A stretch of DNA of 64,000 bases from a virus, in the IMG/VR virus record IMGVR_UViG_3300035190_001334, positions 1 to 64,000 of that record. One strand, 5' to 3'. The notes under the pieces were generated by a model. It saw only the letters and a list, made by a program, of their open reading frames with translations. It was not told where the DNA came from and made no database searches. Below are positions 3,156 to 55,306 of the stretch, one piece after another; positions within the stretch are counted from its first letter, which is position 1; each line of letters begins with the position of its first letter. The position numbers and the translations under genes were made by a program.

Positions 3156-3456
3156 GTCCTCCGACCCAAGGCGCTGCTGCACCAATCGCTTTACCTCCAT
3201 AGTGCTTTGCTTTTCCGACTACACCAAGTCCCGCAACTCTTTTTGCTTCTGCTGCTGCTGCTCTCTTAGCTTGTACACCAGCTTGTGCATTCTGTGTGGC
3301 GGTATTCTGTCTGTTACTATCGAAGGCTTGCCTTTGTTGAGCTTTCATTTGGTCATACTGAGTACGGTCGCCAGTTTTTTTAGCTTTTTCGTATGCTTGC
3401 CGATTAAGGTTGCCTAATTCAGTGTCGCCAAGGGCAAAATTTGCAAAGTGTTGCAT
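3070..3456 (-). CDS. Basic Gly/Ala-rich protein of the ANF-motif family (possible internal virion protein)
   Basis: Starts MQHFANF; C-terminal Gly-zipper/hydrophobic segment; motif shared with three other ORFs. Confidence 0.7.
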   Translation of the reverse strand: MQHFANFALGDTELGNLNRQAYEKAKKTGDRTQYDQMKAQQRQAFDSNRQNTATQNAQAGVQAKRAAAAEAKRVAGLGVVGKAKHYGGKAIGAAAPWVGGLTTAAMVLPALGSLMPQRQPQPEQEPPY

Positions 3457-3506
3457 ATTCTCTTTTCTGTGTTACTATATTCAACAATTCTACCATCTAC
3501 AAACAT

Positions 3507-3984
3507 ATGCTAGCATCCCCACCCCCCGATGAGCCTATCCACAATTTTGACTTTTCCCTACTAAGTAAGCGCATCGCTGAAGTAAAGGACGCGAACGCCA
3601 CAATGTCTCAAAAGCAACTCGCCAAATCTTTCATTAAAAACAGTATCTTACCTGTTCTAAATACCCCTCAAATCTACCAGATGCTTCAAAACCCTGCATT
3701 TGTAGACCAATTTACAGAATTACTCCTCGGATTCCTTATTACTGCACCTAAAGTTGCACCTCCTAAGCCCAATGAGCTATAAAATAATCTGCTCTTATCG
3801 AGGCACACCGATGAAATCGACAGTCGGACTACCAATTGGCGTTCGACTGTTTCCTCCAGATGCAAATTACTCATACAGCCGCGTGGAAATTGAAACAAAA
3901 ACGCAGTTGACACCTGAACAAGAAACGAAGTTGTTCAAAATACTTGAGAATTGGTTCTTACAACTGAAAAAAGAGTCTGCATAA
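3507..3984 (+). CDS. Two small hypothetical proteins (3507-3782, 3811-3984)
   Basis: ATG-started ORFs upstream of nrdA. Confidence 0.55.
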
Positions 3985-3988
3985 ATGC

Positions 3989-4018
3989 TTGCAGAAAAGA
4001 AAGTTTCGATGCTACACT
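3989..4018 (+). promoter_or_regulatory. Sigma70-type promoter of nrdAB
   Basis: TTGCAG-N18-TACACT with extended TGn, in the intergenic gap. Confidence 0.55.
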
Positions 4019-4045
4019 AGATAAACCAAAACGACAAAAGACATA

Positions 4046-6289
4046 ATGCAAGTAACAAAACTCGACGGCTCGTTGCAAAATCTTGACTACCAAAAGATTC
4101 ACGCAATGGTTGAAATCTGTGCGGCTGGAATCGAAAATGTAAGTGTTTCAGACGTAATCATGGGCGCGAAACTTAACTTCTACGATGGCATCTCAACTCA
4201 AGACATTCAGACTGCACTAGTGAAAAGCGCTGAGAACTTGATGACTGCGCGTAACCCAAATTATTCACTGCTTGCTGGGCGTTTACTTCTTACTCAACTT
4301 CGTAAACAGGTGTGGGGCGAGTGGTCAGTACCCCATCTTTCGGACGTAGTTTTTGCCAATACTTTGCGCGGATTTTATGATGAGGAGCTACAAGGATTTT
4401 ACTCTGCTGAGGAGTGGAATGAACTTAACGACTACATCAATCACGACCGAGACTTAGATTACACTTCCGCTAGTATTCAGCAATTCAAAGACAAGTACAG
4501 CGTCAAGAATCGCGTCACTGGACAGATTTACGAGACTCCACAAGTAGCTTATATGCTCATTGCTGCTGCTGGGTTTGCTCACGAAGATAAGGCGATTCGG
4601 GTGCAGTTTGTCAAAGATGCCTACGACGCTTTCTCAACTGAAGCTATCTCGCTTGCCACACCTATCCGCGCAGGAATGCGTACAAGCTCCAAGCAATATG
4701 CAAGTTGTGTACTAATTGCGGCAGATGATGACCGTAAATCGATTGCTGCGGCTCAGTCTGCGATGATGGAGTATGTTTGTTTGCGAAGTGGTATTGGTGT
4801 TGACTTTGGAAGATGGAGAGCGCTCAATGCCCCTATCCGCAATGGCTCTGTCAAGCACACTGGAGCAATTGGTTTCCTCAAGTCCTACGAAGCTACAATC
4901 AATGCCTGTAGCCAAGGTGGGGTTCGGAAGGGTAGCGCGACAATGTTTTACCCTATCTGGCACAAGGACGTACTTTCTTTTCTGCCTCTGACGAACGGGA
5001 AGGGAACCGAAGAGACTCGTACTCGCGGATTGGATTACGGAATCGCCACTTCCAAGATTTTCTATGAAAGATTGCAAGATGAGGGGGAAATCTGTTTATT
5101 CGACCCCAACGATTTGAAAGCTAAGTATAACATCTATGAGAACTTCGGACTAGAATCTTTTGATAAATTGTACCTAAAAGCAGAAGTTGACCCTGATATC
5201 CCCAAGACAAGAATCAGTGCGGTAAAACTTTGGACATTGATTGCTCAAGAAAGAGCCGAGACAGGTCAAGTTTATATTCTAAATATTGACCATGCAAATA
5301 GCCACAGTTCTTTTACTGTACACATTTCCCAAAGCAATTTGTGTGTCGAAATAACAGAGCCAACTACACCTTTCTACTCTCTTGATGACCCAAATGGGGA
5401 GATTGCAACCTGTATTCTTGCTGCACTTAATCCTGCAAAAATAAGAAGTCGTTTAGATTACCAGAAATCTTCCCGTATCATTGTCCGTTTTCTTGATAAC
5501 GTTATTGAACATCAAGATTACCCTTTCATCATGGCTGAAAATGGTTCTAAGGCTCGTCGTTCAATTGGTGTAGGTTTTAATGACTTTGCACATTGGCTGG
5601 CTCTAAATGACTTCAAATGGGGTAGTGACGAGATGCTAGAGGAAGTACACAATCTAGCTGAAATGCACCAGTACTACTTACTTAAAGCTAGTAATGAATT
5701 AGCTATTGAAAAAGGAGCTTGCAGTAAATTCAATGAAACCAAGTACTCGAAAGGCATTCTCCCAATCGACACCTATTATAAAAATGTAGATAGCTTGGCG
5801 GCTCCTATTTATGTATATGACTGGGAGGCACTTCGAGCATCTATTTTAGAACACGGTCTTCGTAATAGCACTCTCACCGCGCAAATGCCTTGTGAGAGCA
5901 GTAGTTTGACGGGAAGTGGCTCTACAAACGGCATCGAGCCTCCACGTTCAGCTATTGGCATCAAAGATAGCAGCACCAACACACTCAAGTTCGCTATCCC
6001 TGATGTAGATAAAGTTGAGTATGAATATGCTTGGTCTTTCTCTTCTAACGAAGCTTACCTGAACACTGTCGCAGTCATTCAGAAGTTCTTTGACCAGTCC
6101 ATTAGTGCAAACACCTATTACAATCCTCTTCTGTACCCAGATTCAAAAGTACCTCTTCAGGTAGTTCTCGATGACCTCATTTATGCTTATAGTATTGGTC
6201 TGAAGAGTTTGTATTATCACAACACTCACGATATGTCCGACAACGGATTATCTTCTTCTTCTTGCAGTTCTGGAGCTTGTGCATTGTAA
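4046..6289 (+). CDS. nrdA: Class Ia ribonucleotide reductase alpha subunit
   Basis: N-terminal ATP cone (VTKLDGS), ETPQ, ASCVL, SNLCVEI, GLRNSTLTAQMP, KSLYY, C-terminal CSSGAC. Confidence 0.97.
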   Translation: MQVTKLDGSLQNLDYQKIHAMVEICAAGIENVSVSDVIMGAKLNFYDGISTQDIQTALVKSAENLMTARNPNYSLLAGRLLLTQLRKQVWGEWSVPHLSDVVFANTLRGFYDEELQGFYSAEEWNELNDYINHDRDLDYTSASIQQFKDKYSVKNRVTGQIYETPQVAYMLIAAAGFAHEDKAIRVQFVKDAYDAFSTEAISLATPIRAGMRTSSKQYASCVLIAADDDRKSIAAAQSAMMEYVCLRSGIGVDFGRWRALNAPIRNGSVKHTGAIGFLKSYEATINACSQGGVRKGSATMFYPIWHKDVLSFLPLTNGKGTEETRTRGLDYGIATSKIFYERLQDEGEICLFDPNDLKAKYNIYENFGLESFDKLYLKAEVDPDIPKTRISAVKLWTLIAQERAETGQVYILNIDHANSHSSFTVHISQSNLCVEITEPTTPFYSLDDPNGEIATCILAALNPAKIRSRLDYQKSSRIIVRFLDNVIEHQDYPFIMAENGSKARRSIGVGFNDFAHWLALNDFKWGSDEMLEEVHNLAEMHQYYLLKASNELAIEKGACSKFNETKYSKGILPIDTYYKNVDSLAAPIYVYDWEALRASILEHGLRNSTLTAQMPCESSSLTGSGSTNGIEPPRSAIGIKDSSTNTLKFAIPDVDKVEYEYAWSFSSNEAYLNTVAVIQKFFDQSISANTYYNPLLYPDSKVPLQVVLDDLIYAYSIGLKSLYYHNTHDMSDNGLSSSSCSSGACAL

Positions 6290-15842: not shown

Positions 15843-17615
15843 TTATTCTCCATAAAAAACATCGGGAATGTAATCTCCAGTGTATCTCGCAGACTTAGTG
15901 ACCCGTAACTGTGGAATCTCAATCCAACTCCTACTGCGGAACAAAGAGGTATTAAGACTTGCTACTGCGCTATCTTGAGTGAAAGTACGTTTGATACTAA
16001 ATTCAGAGCTTGACGAGGCTGCATTCATCACTTCGCTTGTAGTTGCAGTTGATTCAAGTTCGCCATTCAAGAATAGAGAACAAGTTGCGCCAGATTTCAC
16101 AAAAGATACATCAACTAATGTACTGTCTGGAATATCGGTCACACCGTCCAAAGTGAAGCTACCAAAGGCGATGCGTAACTTGAGGTCATAGATTCCCCAC
16201 GTAAATCCACCTTCAACATCGATAATAGCTCCGCGAGTATTGCCAATCGGATTGTAAATTTTGGCTTCGAGAGTTACATTACCTGTTATCTCCAAGTTGC
16301 TGTTTGTATATCCAATATGCGAGTACTTATTGAGCCGTCCTGACGCGATAAGAGGTTGAACTGTAGTGTTTGAGGTAAAACTTCTTGTGAGGCTGTACTG
16401 AGCAAAATCCGTATCACCCACATTGAATTTGAGAAGTAGCACTGTGTTAGCTGTTAACGTATCTTTAGGCGGAACATCGTTAGTAGAAAAAGGAATGCTG
16501 GCTGCTGTATTGATGGTAAGTTGGCGCAAATATCCTTGCCAACTCTGAGAAGTCCATGACGGTGTTCCAGTAGCGTTTTTCAAGCTGCCGATACACAGTG
16601 GCTCAGTTGAGTTATTGTTGAAATTGTTAGCTGATTTGAGATGAGCGCTAAGTACACCATCAATAAATATTTTGTAAACTCGCCCGATTCGGTTAATAAC
16701 AATACCATGCTCCTTGACATCATCTGGTAAGGCGCATGAAAGCACGTTACTACCAAAGATAGCAAACAAGGTACTATCAGCCGCTACACCCACATAAAAC
16801 CCTATGCTGGATGCTTTGTGGCTACCCACGATACATCCATACTCGCCTACGCTCGTTTTGGCAGAAAAGAAGGAAATGGTGAAGTCAGTTTCGTCGAGGT
16901 CGAGAGTACTGGTTTTGGTTGCTTCGAGTCGCCCAGTGGAGCCAAGAAGGAGGCGCGACTTGCTGATGCTCGGAGTGCCTACAGTAGCCGCGATAGCCGA
17001 GATGCCAGCACCAGTGTATGCAGTTGTTGAGGAGCCGAACGCCAGATACAGAATTTCAGAGGCAGGAGCCGTGTACCCTATCTTTTCTGCCACACCGATT
17101 AAGCCGCTAGGCGAGATGTTGTCGCTGTAATTGATATTCGCGTAAAGTTTATTAACATATTGCAGTTCGAGGACTTGCTTGCCAAAATATGCAGTGAGAA
17201 GTGTTGCAAGGCTATATTGCTTAGGTAGCGCGAAGATATCAGTGAAATTCTTGATTATGTGACCATTTGGGACTAGCTCAATGAAATATTTGGTGTACTT
17301 GCCAGCATTGAGGATTGTGAGGGTCGTGTTGGCTGTTAGAGTGATACTGAGGTACTGAGTCGCGGTAGCGAGGTCAAGTGAGTATGTGTCGGTCGAGATG
17401 GTGATTGAAGTGAGAGCGTAGGCGCTGATTTGATTCTGGGGTATGTACTCGAAGCCTGAAGATGCGTTGAGACTGTTTGTTATGTTCGTGTAAACGCCCC
17501 AACATTTGCGGTCAAAGTTGATTAGCGGAGTGCTTGCAGGTAATAATGAGGAATCTAGTGCCGAAAGCTCTGAATCGCTGTTTACTGTATAGCCGTTGCG
17601 TGGAGGTCTTGCCAT
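15843..17615 (-). CDS. Tail protein with two LamG/ConA-like domains
   Basis: DFTISFF, IFIDGVL, T.EAKIY, LFLNGEL, LRVTKSARYT. Confidence 0.75.
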   Translation of the reverse strand: MARPPRNGYTVNSDSELSALDSSLLPASTPLINFDRKCWGVYTNITNSLNASSGFEYIPQNQISAYALTSITISTDTYSLDLATATQYLSITLTANTTLTILNAGKYTKYFIELVPNGHIIKNFTDIFALPKQYSLATLLTAYFGKQVLELQYVNKLYANINYSDNISPSGLIGVAEKIGYTAPASEILYLAFGSSTTAYTGAGISAIAATVGTPSISKSRLLLGSTGRLEATKTSTLDLDETDFTISFFSAKTSVGEYGCIVGSHKASSIGFYVGVAADSTLFAIFGSNVLSCALPDDVKEHGIVINRIGRVYKIFIDGVLSAHLKSANNFNNNSTEPLCIGSLKNATGTPSWTSQSWQGYLRQLTINTAASIPFSTNDVPPKDTLTANTVLLLKFNVGDTDFAQYSLTRSFTSNTTVQPLIASGRLNKYSHIGYTNSNLEITGNVTLEAKIYNPIGNTRGAIIDVEGGFTWGIYDLKLRIAFGSFTLDGVTDIPDSTLVDVSFVKSGATCSLFLNGELESTATTSEVMNAASSSSEFSIKRTFTQDSAVASLNTSLFRSRSWIEIPQLRVTKSARYTGDYIPDVFYGE

Positions 17616-41886: not shown

Positions 41887-42552
41887 CTATTCTAGCGCAT
41901 TATAAGCATAGGCTAATTTCTCTTCGTCAGTGGCATTGCGCCAGCCCTCCCATTTAGGTTTTGTATTCCTTATTCTGCGATACAAAGTATTAAGCAATAC
42001 TTGTTCCGCTTCGGCTGCAATTTTTCTTGTTGGGTAGTATTTCCCGTTTATCATAACTGGCAAAGTTCTCCAGTGGTTCTCCCCACTAATTTTCTCTAGA
42101 GTTTCTTTAGATTTAAGCTTGCCGAGTTTTGCTATATGCTCTGGACTAAGTTTTCTACCCTTTTTCGCCTTGCTTAGCTTCTTCTTGTGTTCCTCGGTGA
42201 ATTTCTTACCCTTTTTCACAGCACTAAGTTTAGCCCTCATTTCTGGGGTTTGAATGCCCCCACCATAACCTCCAAGACAGATATTATAGGTATCGGGACG
42301 CTCTATAAATTCCTGAGTGACCATTTCAGCTTCAGCCAAATAAGCACCCTCAGCACAGGAAAATTCTGCAAGAGTAATCCTGCTAAAATTAGCTCTTCCA
42401 TATTTTTCAATAGCTGGTTTTAAGGCATAGCCACTGCCAAGATAGCGTTTGGAGTCAAAGGTATCGGTCAGTCTATGTACCCCAACATAAATCCTGCCAT
42501 TGCAAACGTTCGTAGTTTGATATAAAATCCAAGTCTCTTTATCTGTTTCCAT
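41887..42552 (-). CDS. GIY-YIG homing endonuclease with NUMOD3 repeats (cassette 1)
   Basis: ILYQTTN..NGRIYVGVH, YLGSG, KYGRANF, YNI..GG, TEEHKKKLS. Confidence 0.9.
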   Translation of the reverse strand: METDKETWILYQTTNVCNGRIYVGVHRLTDTFDSKRYLGSGYALKPAIEKYGRANFSRITLAEFSCAEGAYLAEAEMVTQEFIERPDTYNICLGGYGGGIQTPEMRAKLSAVKKGKKFTEEHKKKLSKAKKGRKLSPEHIAKLGKLKSKETLEKISGENHWRTLPVMINGKYYPTRKIAAEAEQVLLNTLYRRIRNTKPKWEGWRNATDEEKLAYAYNALE

Positions 42553-42574
42553 TGCAAATATACCTTACCTGAGT

Positions 42575-42593
42575 TATAATAATAAGTATAACA
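42575..42593. promoter_or_regulatory. Bidirectional promoter/operator of cassette 1
   Basis: Reverse complement of TGTTATACTTATTATTATA; 18/19 identical to 53852-53870. Confidence 0.7.
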
Positions 42594-42608
42594 CACTGTG
42601 AGTACAAA

Positions 42609-42752
42609 ATGCGTCCTGATAAAAGTAAAAGATTGAATGTGAAATTGTCCGTAAAAAGACACGAAAAATTAGTAAAGTATGCCGAGTCTCAAGATAAAGA
42701 TATGACCTCTGTTATTGAGTGTTTTATTGATTCTCTTCCCAACATAGAATAA
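42609..42752 (+). CDS. Ribbon-helix-helix microprotein (cassette 1; not in track)
   Basis: MRPDKSKRLNVKLSVKRHEKLVKYAESQDKDMTSVIECFIDSLPNIE. Confidence 0.75.
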   Translation: MRPDKSKRLNVKLSVKRHEKLVKYAESQDKDMTSVIECFIDSLPNIE

Positions 42753-52084: not shown

Positions 52085-53683
52085 CTACCCTGCATCAGTA
52101 GTAGCAATCTTACCACGCTTCTTTACCACTCCAACACTATCCTTACGGGCTGAAAAAAGTATGATGTCAGATTTGCCATTTCCCGACAAAACTGGAGTTG
52201 TCCCACTAGGGAACAAGATAGTGTTGTCAAAAGCTACCGCACCTGTATTCTGTACCAATTCGACAATAAGTGCTTTAGTTTGATTATTGGCAAGCGTAGC
52301 GGTAAAGTTAATGTTAGTGATGGTGTTGCTTATATCTGCAACTGGAGTTTTTAAGATGAGGTAGTCATAATCTGCGTCAAGGTCGATTGTGTAGTTTGTC
52401 GGTGAGGATATTGTCACGGTGTTGGTCTTTATTTGGTCGCCAAGAGCCGTTATCACTTCGTTAGATAGCTTTGCCAGTCCAACGCTTCCGTCGGGCAATG
52501 CAGGATTAAAAACGACCCATCTACCAGTGGTCGGATTAGTGTTAGGAATCAGAACTGTGTCGCCGTTGTCGGACGCAGTGGATGCAGCATCGTACTTGTA
52601 AGGTCTATTGACCGATTCAACCAAACGCACTTGACCAGACTTGTATTGCACTGAGTTCAAGCTCTTGAGCGCCGCAATGTTGTCCACTGGCGCGTCCCAG
52701 AAAAGAAGGTCTTGTAGAAGCGCGTAATTGACCAGCTTGGGGTAGATACTGATGAAACTTTGTGCCGATACTCCGTCTAGAAGCTGTGAAGATGGTGTGA
52801 CTTCAATTACCACTGCTGAACCATCGGGGATGCCCTTGTTGAGCGCAATATCAAGCGTAGGGTACTCTTGCACCACTCCAAGGTTGTCGATACCAGTTGT
52901 ATCCAAGGCGAAAGAGGTGAGGTTTAAGTATCCAATAATCTTGACACCAAAGACGAGCCGTATAGCTGGGTCAGAGGTGTATTCGCTTAGATTGAGACGT
53001 AAACCCGTCAAAGTACCGCCAGTGTCGTTCACAATCCAGTATTTGATAGGGACTGGAATGGAATTGATGTTTTCGAGTGGGGCAACGAGTAGTGTCTCTT
53101 GGTCAGCGCTGATTACGTCAATTTCGGCTAACGAAGTGGTTTCGTAGAGGCTTGCTTCTCTAGTCTTGAACCAGCGACCGCTATTGTGTGCTAACACAGT
53201 AATATTATCGACACTTTCTACCGAACCGCTAACAAATTCGTAGCAGAAACCATTGGAATTTAAAGCTGCCCTAGTTCCCGTCAACAACCCAGTAAGATTA
53301 CTGATATCTGAAGGATTATTATATGTAGAGTTATTTAAAACAGATAAAGTTACATTAGTCGGAGTAACAGGTGTTATATAGTCTGCGGCAAAATGAGAAA
53401 ATTTGTATATTACCCTACTAGTTGTATAAGTATTGGTACTAGATATAGAAATAAGAGACTCTTTTACATCTTCATAGCCCAACGTGGTGAAGGTATCCGA
53501 AGAAATTACTATCGAGCCACTAGAAGATACTGTAATACTTGCAGATGGGGATGGTACAGTATACCCAGCCCTATTTCGCCTAACAAGCCACAGATAATAT
53601 GTCCCAGCCGCAAGGCTACCTCCTCCTACTGTTGATACTGTAGGGGCTACCAGTGTTTTACTTGAAGCATAGATAGTTTTCAT
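52085..53683 (-). CDS. Tail fibre/spike attachment protein
   Basis: GSLAAGTYY, two GRW modules, LPDGSV..AKLS. Confidence 0.7.
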   Translation of the reverse strand: MKTIYASSKTLVAPTVSTVGGGSLAAGTYYLWLVRRNRAGYTVPSPSASITVSSSGSIVISSDTFTTLGYEDVKESLISISSTNTYTTSRVIYKFSHFAADYITPVTPTNVTLSVLNNSTYNNPSDISNLTGLLTGTRAALNSNGFCYEFVSGSVESVDNITVLAHNSGRWFKTREASLYETTSLAEIDVISADQETLLVAPLENINSIPVPIKYWIVNDTGGTLTGLRLNLSEYTSDPAIRLVFGVKIIGYLNLTSFALDTTGIDNLGVVQEYPTLDIALNKGIPDGSAVVIEVTPSSQLLDGVSAQSFISIYPKLVNYALLQDLLFWDAPVDNIAALKSLNSVQYKSGQVRLVESVNRPYKYDAASTASDNGDTVLIPNTNPTTGRWVVFNPALPDGSVGLAKLSNEVITALGDQIKTNTVTISSPTNYTIDLDADYDYLILKTPVADISNTITNINFTATLANNQTKALIVELVQNTGAVAFDNTILFPSGTTPVLSGNGKSDIILFSARKDSVGVVKKRGKIATTDAG

Positions 53684-53687
53684 TATC

Positions 53688-53834
53688 TTATTTTAACACT
53701 ACCACTTCAGGCAAAGAATCAATCCAGTCTTCAAAAAGTACCGTCATGGCTCTGTCTCTGGACTCGGCGTAATTTTTAAGCTTTGTCATGCGTTTCTCTG
53801 ACAAAGTGGCGTTGAATCTCTTATCTTTACTCAT
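53688..53834 (-). CDS. Ribbon-helix-helix microprotein (cassette 2; not in track)
   Basis: MSKDKRFNATLSEKRMTKLKNYAESRDRAMTVLFEDWIDSLPEVVVLK; paralog of 42609-42752. Confidence 0.75.
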   Translation of the reverse strand: MSKDKRFNATLSEKRMTKLKNYAESRDRAMTVLFEDWIDSLPEVVVLK

Positions 53835-53851
53835 GATTAGTGTCAATGTTA

Positions 53852-53870
53852 TGTTATACTTACTATTATA
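53852..53870. promoter_or_regulatory. Bidirectional promoter/operator of cassette 2
   Basis: TGTTATACTTACTATTATA: extended -10 on +, TATAAT on -. Confidence 0.7.
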
Positions 53871-53892
53871 TCCTAGAAAACGATATTACGCA

Positions 53893-54672
53893 ATGACAAA
53901 AGATAAAGATACATGGATTTTGTATAAAACTGAAAATTTGGTAAATCATAGAAGTTATGTTGGAGTGCATAAACTTGCCGACAACCTACGCTCTAAGAAT
54001 TACCTTGGTAGTGGAAATAATATAAAGACAGCTATAAAGAAATACGGAAGAGAAAATTTCATTAGAACTACACTTGCAGAGTTTGCTTGTGCCGAAGACG
54101 CTTACTCGGCTGAAGAAAAGATGGTAACTGAGGAATTTATTAAACGTAAAGATACTTATAACATAAGTCTTGGTGGTCGTGGTAGTTCCAAACATACGGA
54201 AGAAGCTAAGGCGAAAATTGCTATTTCACACAAGGGGAGAGAGTTTACGGAGCAACATAGGGCAAAAATCAGCGCGTCAGCAAAAGGTAGAAAGATGACT
54301 GAAGAAACAAAAATGAAAATTGCGATTGCAAACACAGGAAAAAAGCATACAGAAGAAACAATGAAAAAACTTCGAGGTAGAATTGTCAGCGAAGAGACTA
54401 GAGCAAAAAGTGCGGAGATATTTAGGGGTAAAACGCACACAGAGGAGGCAAAAAGTAGGATGAGCGAGGCAGCTAAACTTAGAACTGGTGCTAAAAATCA
54501 TTCAAGTATAGCAGTAGTGATAAATGGTAAATATTATGAAAATGCACATATAGCATCCCCCTTAGAACAAACACATTATCAAACTATAGTAAGTAGACTA
54601 AAATCGCCAACAGCTAAATGGTCTGAATGGCGCTATGCTACTGAAGAGGAAAAATTGTCCCACCAGATGTAG
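53893..54672 (+). CDS. GIY-YIG homing endonuclease with NUMOD3 repeats (cassette 2)
   Basis: MTKDKDTWILYKTEN..SYVGVH, YLGSG, HTEE repeats; start reassigned by alignment to cassette 1. Confidence 0.9.
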   Translation: MTKDKDTWILYKTENLVNHRSYVGVHKLADNLRSKNYLGSGNNIKTAIKKYGRENFIRTTLAEFACAEDAYSAEEKMVTEEFIKRKDTYNISLGGRGSSKHTEEAKAKIAISHKGREFTEQHRAKISASAKGRKMTEETKMKIAIANTGKKHTEETMKKLRGRIVSEETRAKSAEIFRGKTHTEEAKSRMSEAAKLRTGAKNHSSIAVVINGKYYENAHIASPLEQTHYQTIVSRLKSPTAKWSEWRYATEEEKLSHQM

Positions 54673-54724
54673 TTGTGATGGTCGGTACAGGTAAGGTCTT
54701 TGACGCTGCGTAGGTAGTCTTCAT
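54638..54724 (-). pseudogene. Stranded original 5' end of the 52085-53683 tail gene
   Basis: MKTTYAASKTLPVPTITTTSGG vs MKTIYASSKTLVAPTVSTVGGG (14/22 identical). Confidence 0.8.
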
Positions 54725-54726
54725 AT

Positions 54727-54897
54727 TTACTTCATAATAGTTGTATTTGTGACGGACGTGACTATATTAAAAGTAAACGTATCACTGCCTTGTGTGAGTT
54801 TTACCCGATTTCCTTCTTGGACGACTCGCGGAACCACATTTTGCAGCCCAGCTTTGATGGCGGCTAGCGCCTCTGTGTAGTCGATGTCTTGGTTCAT
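54727..54897 (-). CDS. 56-aa hypothetical protein (not in track)
   Basis: MNQDIDYTEALAAIKAGLQNVVPR...; GG-TATAAT-N6-ATG; coupled to the remnant. Confidence 0.6.
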   Translation of the reverse strand: MNQDIDYTEALAAIKAGLQNVVPRVVQEGNRVKLTQGSDTFTFNIVTSVTNTTIMK

Positions 54898-55003
54898 TTG
54901 ATTATTATACCTTGTTCCCTATTTCTTTTCTGCAAGCTAACGCAGTGACGAGCGCAAGCGAGTGGTACGTGTTATCATAACAAGTAAACATACACCAAAC
55001 AAT

Positions 55004-55306
55004 ATGACCTATCCAATTTCTGCATTTGTCGAAGCAGCCGAAGCGTTACGTGAAGAATACGAAAATGCTGAAGTTACGTCGTCCGATACGTCGATTACAG
55101 TCTCTCGTACTGTTGTCTCTGAAGAAGGTGCTACATATACTTATGGCATCGAGTTTACACCCCCTGATGCTGAATATGATGAAGAGCTTGTCGAATTGTA
55201 CGTCGAAGACTTGTACGAGTCACTTTATGGTGAGGATGTCGAGTACGAAGATGAAGAAGGTGAAGATGACGAGGAATATGATGAAAACGGTTATGTTGTA
55301 GCATAG
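55004..55306 (+). CDS. Highly acidic small protein
   Basis: E/D/Y-rich; upstream TGTTATCAT; followed by a terminator. Confidence 0.7.
   Translation: MTYPISAFVEAAEALREEYENAEVTSSDTSITVSRTVVSEEGATYTYGIEFTPPDAEYDEELVELYVEDLYESLYGEDVEYEDEEGEDDEEYDENGYVVA

Follow-up and report, generated by a model that had tools for sequence, protein, structure and literature searches.

Organization of the Locus

How can a homing-type endonuclease gene lie within the coding sequence of a phage gene that is nevertheless whole? The question is raised by a locus in IMG/VR record IMGVR_UViG_3300035190_001334, of which the first 64,000 nucleotides (nt; hereafter the window, the first 64 kb of a single 145,466-bp contig) were analyzed. 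The source genome is that of a freshwater cyanophage resembling the Pseudanabaena phages Pam2 and PA-SR01. On the minus strand, a putative tail-fiber gene of 532 amino acids (aa; 53683-52085) forms one open, chimeric frame. Upstream of it stand a gene for a ribbon-helix-helix-like (RHH) protein, a GIY-YIG endonuclease gene on the opposite strand and a second, truncated start of the same tail gene, hereafter the stub. A first-pass annotation made from the sequence alone had read this arrangement as an endonuclease cassette that landed about 22 codons into a structural gene and brought along a recoded replacement N-terminus with its own promoter. All the features it listed (promoter hexamers, a 56-aa open reading frame (ORF), the stub, the GIY-YIG gene, the RHH gene and the intact start) are present where it placed them. 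Comparison with related phages, whose loci are designated here by L and a number, identifies the stub as the recipient's displaced gene start and the intact start as part of a natural allele. We consider it fairly probable that a free-standing, intronless GIY-YIG cassette homed into the gene through one homologous and one short-homology crossover.

The Displaced Gene Start

The stub (54658..54724, minus strand) comprises the recipient's original first 22 codons, plus 1 nt, of a tail gene of allele class B. It starts at 54724, 2 nt past the stop codon of the 56-aa ORF, and its frame continues beyond the 22 codons for six codons in the antisense of the GIY-YIG gene up to a stop at 54640-54638. 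Compared with the intact start at 53683, 14 of the 22 residues are identical, while the DNA agrees at only 35/66 positions. The next best 22-aa match within the genome reached 9/22 among approximately 291,000 six-frame windows, and no other duplicated copy of the tail-gene start was found by this comparison. At the nucleotide level the stub is 63/66 identical to the empty allele L002 and 61/66 to L001. In L002 the 56-aa ORF is followed by 2 nt and then by the tail gene, and the match to the stub ends at 54658. As the annotation had predicted for a cassette boundary 22 codons into the gene, empty alleles (L002 and minor contigs of sequencing runs X1, X2 and X4) run from the stub straight into codon 23. 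Specifically, in run X1, likely the source sample, a contig of depth 3.4 tracks the stub to 54658 and continues as a normal tail gene, against a depth of about 50 for the occupied form. The contigs of the empty allele part from the window sequence at 54658-54660. Runs X2 and X3, from 2023-2024, also contained pieces that are identical to the occupied allele. Two N-termini in nuclease-free relatives would speak against the annotated interpretation, and 0 of the 12 endonuclease-free loci tested carried a second gene start. Because the empty alleles of L002 and the lake contigs match the stub, and because these 12 loci have no second start, the alignments identify the stub as the recipient's own gene start.

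Origin of the Incoming 5′ Tract

The functional tail gene is composed of two parts, both on the minus strand. The incoming 5′ tract (53206..53683) extends from codon 1 to codon ~145-160 and belongs to a natural allele class, class A, while the remaining two-thirds (52085..53205) are the recipient's own 3′ part. Codons 23-157 share 82-87% of their nucleotides with class A alleles versus 56-61% with class B and C relatives. From codon 158 on, the gene shares 94% of its nucleotides with L001, an allele with a class B start, versus 80-83% with class A alleles. Informative sites switch class at codon 144-148 or 159-160 (161 vs 18 to the left of the break, 31 vs 190 to the right), and lake contigs depart from the window sequence at 53206-53212. 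Phylogenies of the two parts place the window with class A in the 5′ tree and as sister to L001 in the 3′ tree, with a bootstrap of 100 each. The replacement is therefore not confined to the 22 codons that the annotation had assumed, as the incoming piece runs to codon ~145-160, and the recipient lost its codons 23 to ~150.

The view that the element itself had recoded the new start does not hold either. In L084, L088 and L089 a class A start stands without any nuclease in its neighborhood, and therefore the incoming start is, from these comparisons, an existing natural allele and not a bespoke recoding. Its 66 nt are 89-91% identical to those of L084 and L089. Tail-gene chimeras without a stub were also observed in L085 (6880-8478) and L089 (3244-4842), with switches from class B to A near codon 90-100 and from A to B near codon 135-140; thus, chimeric N-terminal regions exist naturally.

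Endonuclease, RHH Gene and Promoters

The nuclease gene (53893..54672, plus strand) is intact and encodes a SegE-like GIY-YIG/NUMOD3 endonuclease of 259 aa, counted from an ATG shared by its homologs. It matched TIGR01453 with 58.7 bits (cut-off 56.05), NUMOD3 with E = 9e-10 and the homing endonuclease family phrog_314 with E = 4e-44, and it keeps all invariant columns of the family. Its nearest named DNA matches are segE genes, and its score against the Pfam SegE domain was 16.5, under the cut-off of 25. The gene's last 15 nt, with the stop codon among them, read as the antisense of stub codons 18-23, and the opposite strand of the stub supplies the stop codon of the nuclease. Rfam intron models gave no match at the locus, and the nuclease gene is antisense to and out of frame with its host gene. 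A group I intron was rejected, since no Rfam model matched and the downstream gene is complete by itself. The annotation was right that the gene is whole without splicing, none being needed. Concerning other kinds of mobile element, no recombinase, terminal repeats or target duplication were seen, the nuclease and RHH ORFs being the only ones present, and a self-comparison gave no flanking repeat. The presence of a cassette at this tail-gene site is optional, with 14 distinct empty and five occupied allele types among the relatives.

The RHH-like gene (53688..53834, minus strand) encodes 48 aa, and the intact tail gene starts 4 nt after its stop codon. An Arc-like PHROG hit (E = 0.01) and Atlas neighbors in RHH families at 0.91 are weak but consistent evidence, and the protein looks like a ribbon-helix-helix protein. 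It is probably a repressor of the divergent promoters described below.

Candidate overlapping divergent promoters were located at 53852..53893. On the minus strand, towards the RHH and tail genes, a -35 element (53893-53888) is separated by 17 nt from a TATAAT (53870-53865), while a TG-n-TATACT motif (53852-53860) on the plus strand faces the nuclease. A TATAAT or TATACT directed towards the RHH and downstream genes is present in all 23 distinct spacers listed, RHH-less cassettes included. In cassettes with an RHH gene, a TTG-led hexamer overlapping the start codon of the nuclease precedes this -10 by about 16-17 nt, and in RHH-less cassettes the same -10 stands 17-23 nt before the downstream start. 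The annotation had proposed another candidate, a TGT-TAAAAT written into the last RHH codons (53690..53698, minus strand; TAAAAT at 53695-53690) and 6 nt before the tail ATG. The sequence is unchanged in L083 and L091, and most RHH genes end in a similar hexamer. Nevertheless, its role as a promoter is doubtful, because in 7/21 RHH genes the hexamer is only 1 nt from the next ATG, too close to serve. A sigma-70 scan listed neither this hexamer nor the one spaced 6 nt from the 56-aa ORF, both being sequence matches only. Genome-wide, hexamers matching at 5/6 or better occur at 6-nt spacing before 3/119 starts, equal to five other spacings. TATAAT-like hexamers exactly 6 nt before an ATG, of leaderless-like appearance, were observed at 17615, 52029, 53683 and 54897 (all minus strand), a count not above that of other spacings. 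A promoter supplied by the cassette remains plausible, and its better-supported candidate, to judge from conservation, is the -35/-10 pair upstream of the RHH gene.

Related Alleles and the Cassette Family

Further occupied alleles came from protein look-ups; two scans of Joint Genome Institute (JGI) metagenome contigs and a junction-pattern scan of viral contigs added none, and scanning the viral contigs with a single nuclease sequence gave distant matches only. L091 carries a nuclease whose end is flush against the stop codon of the 56-aa ORF, an RHH gene 96% identical to that of the window, a class A start (62/66 nt) and no stub, an arrangement that is donor-like in its gene order. In L083, a class B stub of another sequence follows another upstream gene, and the nuclease is 54% and the RHH gene 90% identical to those of the window; the start is of class A. 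L092, whose contig begins inside the stub, has a 44%-identical nuclease, no RHH gene and a start of a third natural class, class C, 73/77 nt identical to the empty allele L177. The three stubs (window, L083 and L092) share the same break register, their nucleases and stubs being different, and in each of the three alleles stub and functional start diverge around the junction. Finally, L085 bears a nuclease before a class B-like start, with neither stub nor RHH gene.

In total, about two dozen cassettes at no fewer than five sites were collected from relatives. Their common layout is a nuclease that opposes the downstream gene and an RHH gene co-directional with it. A second cassette lies in the window itself (41887-42749), with a 221-aa GIY-YIG gene on the minus strand and an RHH gene on the plus strand, between the divergent portal gene and a 248-aa gene. 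It is intergenic and has no visible stub. This portal site is the most often occupied among the relatives (11 of the cassettes sampled) and is empty in Pam2 and PA-SR01. Members of the same family in L010 (21276-22258), L083 (16993-18040), L100, L111, L113 and L114 overlap tail-to-tail with the last ~35 nt of a 1630-1643-aa gene, whose last codons in antisense form the C-terminal tail of the nuclease; the window is empty at that site. Further optional nuclease genes of the tail module, at 3269-4537 and 5172-5666 in L083 and at 1608-2198 in L088, include a 422-aa GIY-YIG gene on the plus strand and T5orf172 proteins.

Proposed Mechanism and Alternative Explanations

The cassette, consisting of the antisense nuclease, the divergent promoters and the RHH gene, normally lies between genes in these phages. 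In the donor it would have stood directly before a class A tail gene, as it does in L091. A mixed infection would have brought it into a class B recipient whose tail gene had been broken in its 5′ part. The right side would have been repaired by homologous recombination at codon ~145-160, from which point the alleles resemble each other once more. With no matching flank on the left, that side would have been joined via a few bases of homology at codon 22-23, just behind the last conserved helix of the nuclease. The native ends of nucleases from other sites have similar bases at the junction position, which would give ~5 nt of microhomology, and T4 is known for homing events that are one-sided and have microhomology junctions as well as for co-conversion with the cut site at a distance (PMC2988022). 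Such a history would leave a dead stub next to the cassette and give a whole chimeric gene that needs no splicing and is started from signals carried by the cassette. The stub could afterwards act as a left homology arm for further spread into class B alleles. We tentatively suggest a more far-reaching version, possible but on balance doubtful, in which antisense GIY-YIG/RHH cassettes repeatedly cut near codon 22 and swap the N-terminal third of a putative receptor-binding tail gene for a resistant natural allele, the stub being kept for the nuclease stop codon and as homology arm.

The annotation had also proposed that a cut site would be removed and that the tail gene now depends on the cassette. 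The dependence holds to the extent that the incoming start is needed, and probably the promoter too, but the dependence is limited, as recombination with an empty allele would restore the old state. Clean excision is unlikely because the two starts share so few nucleotides.

Several observations weigh against homing of the cassette as set out above. With only 43% identity, the L091 nuclease does not come from the actual donor. The junction motif was found in only 3/14 empty alleles, and its absence from the occupied ones is not significant. L083 and L092 share 42/48 nt adjoining the junction, so that their junctions may have one origin and the differing junction of the window a second. The three stub-linked nucleases do not group in trees of the N- or the C-domain, and their mutual similarity is at most a few points above the family median. 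A shared target would not have led one to expect this. Additionally, the tail gene is mosaic without a stub too, as in L085 and L089. Nuclease C domains are 47% identical within a site versus 41% between sites, with relatedness uncorrected. Because same-site nucleases are barely more alike and the stub-linked three form no clade, nuclease ORFs appear, on this comparison, to be exchanged between cassettes.

The strongest competitor is ordinary mosaic recombination, which we regard as unlikely but have to take seriously. A chance short-homology junction together with a homologous crossover would have moved the block between co-infecting phages, with the nuclease as a passenger or cutting elsewhere, and drift or selection on the class A tail domain (host range or escape from CRISPR) would have spread it. 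The whole gene is indeed a mosaic, L085 and L089 switch class at other codons, and the nuclease bodies at the tail-gene site are unrelated. Moreover, Pam2 is targeted by host CRISPR spacers and its gp43, the ortholog of the tail gene, is a proposed receptor-binding protein (PMC9382816). Chance recombination, however, does not readily account for stubs being seen only beside a nuclease (3/5 occupied types, 0/12 empty), for a single break register despite different stubs, upstream neighbors and replacement classes, or for nuclease ORFs that are intact.

An improbable alternative is a cassette with a defined left end and a dedicated insertion mechanism, which lacks its own stop codon and borrows one from whatever adjoins. 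At the three intergenic sites of co-directional type, as at the stub site, the last conserved nuclease codon lies 1-13 nt from the point where the likeness to empty alleles stops, and therefore the C-terminal tail and stop are read from the opposite strand of the neighbor. Nevertheless, deletions trimming the gene to its last needed helix would explain this end equally well, and the corresponding distance at the portal site is 44-52 nt. Nor is the right end fixed: it lies ~480 nt into the tail gene, the RHH gene is absent in L085 and L092, and a dedicated mechanism is at odds with the lack of recombinase, terminal repeats and target duplication.

A further alternative, the strong form of the annotated interpretation, is that insertion duplicated the gene start in place and that the functional copy was then recoded so as to avoid being cut. 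It would fit the 14/22 identical residues with mostly third-position differences, but it is very improbable and was rejected, as class A alleles occur in nuclease-free phages (unless all of these descend from ancestors that lost cassette and stub), the functional start is close to those of L084 and L089, and the divergence spans ~150 codons, with an indel of 4 residues, and falls with class A in the tree.

Identity of the Tail Gene and Neighboring Genes

The 532-aa gene lies in the tail module, behind the tape-measure gene, and its product is 84% identical to Pam2 gp43, a class C allele, and to the PA-SR01 ortholog. Pam2 gp43 was labeled a tail fiber from an HHpred match (probability 0.77) and is not one of the proteins that carry a mark for detection by virion mass spectrometry (PMC9382816). 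The annotation's "structural gene" is thus supported by gene position and by the prediction for the Pam2 ortholog but not by detection of that ortholog in virions, and on this basis a tail gene is plausible. The predicted fold (mean predicted local distance difference test, pLDDT, 57.9) has beta-rich N-terminal (~10-175) and C-terminal parts. The best PDB matches of the model, a tailspike and a capsid spike, had template modeling (TM) scores of 0.13-0.15 and gave no reliable fold assignment.

The conserved 56-aa ORF (54727..54897, minus strand) is the ortholog of Pam2 gp40 and is 96% identical to that of L002. It stands directly upstream of the tail gene in several empty alleles, its stop codon being 2 nt before the tail ATG in L002, L003, L006 and L010. 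A predicted -10 element, GG-TATAAT (54904..54911, minus strand; TATAAT at 54909-54904), precedes it by 6 nt and is the recipient's own sequence, identical in the empty allele L002. The slot between this ORF and the tail gene is variable and holds 0-3 extra genes of ~50-220 aa. Such genes occur in L001, L004, L005, L008, L009, L083, L084, L088 and L089, and the window and L002 have none. Two slot genes of Pam2, gp41 and gp42, were detected by virion mass spectrometry (PMC9382816). On the plus strand, the window also encodes a very acidic small protein (54962-55306), ortholog of Pam2 gp38, which is a predicted putative anti-CRISPR protein.

Comparison with Known Systems

The closest parallels are gene hybrids made by endonucleases in fungal mitochondria, namely atp6 of Allomyces macrogynus, atp6, atp9, cox2 and nad3 of Glomus and rps3 of Ophiostoma (PMC3630166; PMC4019555). 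There too an intron-less endonuclease gene lies inside a host gene that a foreign copy of the gene end keeps whole. The displaced native end matches empty alleles (91% for Glomus atp6, 95% here), and the two copies are ~55-64% alike (PMC3630166; PMC4019555). The incoming terminus is also foreign and in frame, here a class A 5′ tract on an L001-like 3′ part. The fungal elements replace the 3′ end and lie downstream, whereas the phage case is a mirrored variant with the 5′ end replaced and the element upstream, and therefore the start codon and transcription signals must come with the element. Apart from its phage host, our case differs in the antisense nuclease, the stop codon borrowed from the stub, the accompanying RHH gene and ~130 recipient codons that were deleted and not displaced. 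Mobility was shown biochemically for Allomyces, while the phage case is known from sequence. The "N-terminal duplication" introns of Tremella were not counted as a 5′ precedent, as what they duplicate is the exon downstream of the insertion (PMC7315562).

Among phages, the free-standing Seg endonucleases of T-even phages (SegE, SegF, SegG and the antisense segD) resemble our element in being GIY-YIG enzymes, intergenic at most sites, with co-traveling flanking alleles and with promoters of the downstream gene embedded in the element, such as the gene 32 promoters in segG (PMC2988022). In contrast, the T4 insertions stay intergenic and leave no stub, and the review of these enzymes describes no divergent RHH partner (PMC2988022). 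Aeh1 mobE in nrdA and T4 mobA in gene 60 are likewise intron-less endonucleases inside a coding sequence that remains functional (PMC2988022). Both halves of the gene are used there, whereas here the upstream piece is dispensable as coding sequence and a full new 5′ part replaces it. Prophages and islands such as e14 and phage 21 in icd integrate in a gene end and carry a replacement end, using an integrase and att sites. They share with our locus the replacement terminus supplied by the element, but no integrase or att sites are present at the phage locus. A literature search found no paper on replacement of a 5′ end by an endonuclease in phages, most subscription papers being outside its reach.

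Implications for Phage Evolution

Besides splicing and gene splitting, the locus presents a third arrangement by which a homing-type nuclease can occupy a coding sequence of a phage. All the states are on record: the empty allele in three classes, an intergenic allele that is donor-like, and the stub-bearing allele in three cases. Homing of the cassette, as proposed here, predicts a difference in cleavage, with class B being cut and classes A and C spared, and two cultured relatives, Pam2 and PA-SR01, exist. If true, it would mean that phages of bloom-forming cyanobacteria have the N-terminal third of a putative host-recognition protein shuffled by these nucleases. If cassettes do cut repeatedly near codon 22, a one-sided accident would become a lasting form of intron-free homing into coding sequence, and selfish nucleases would drive allele turnover of the tail protein.

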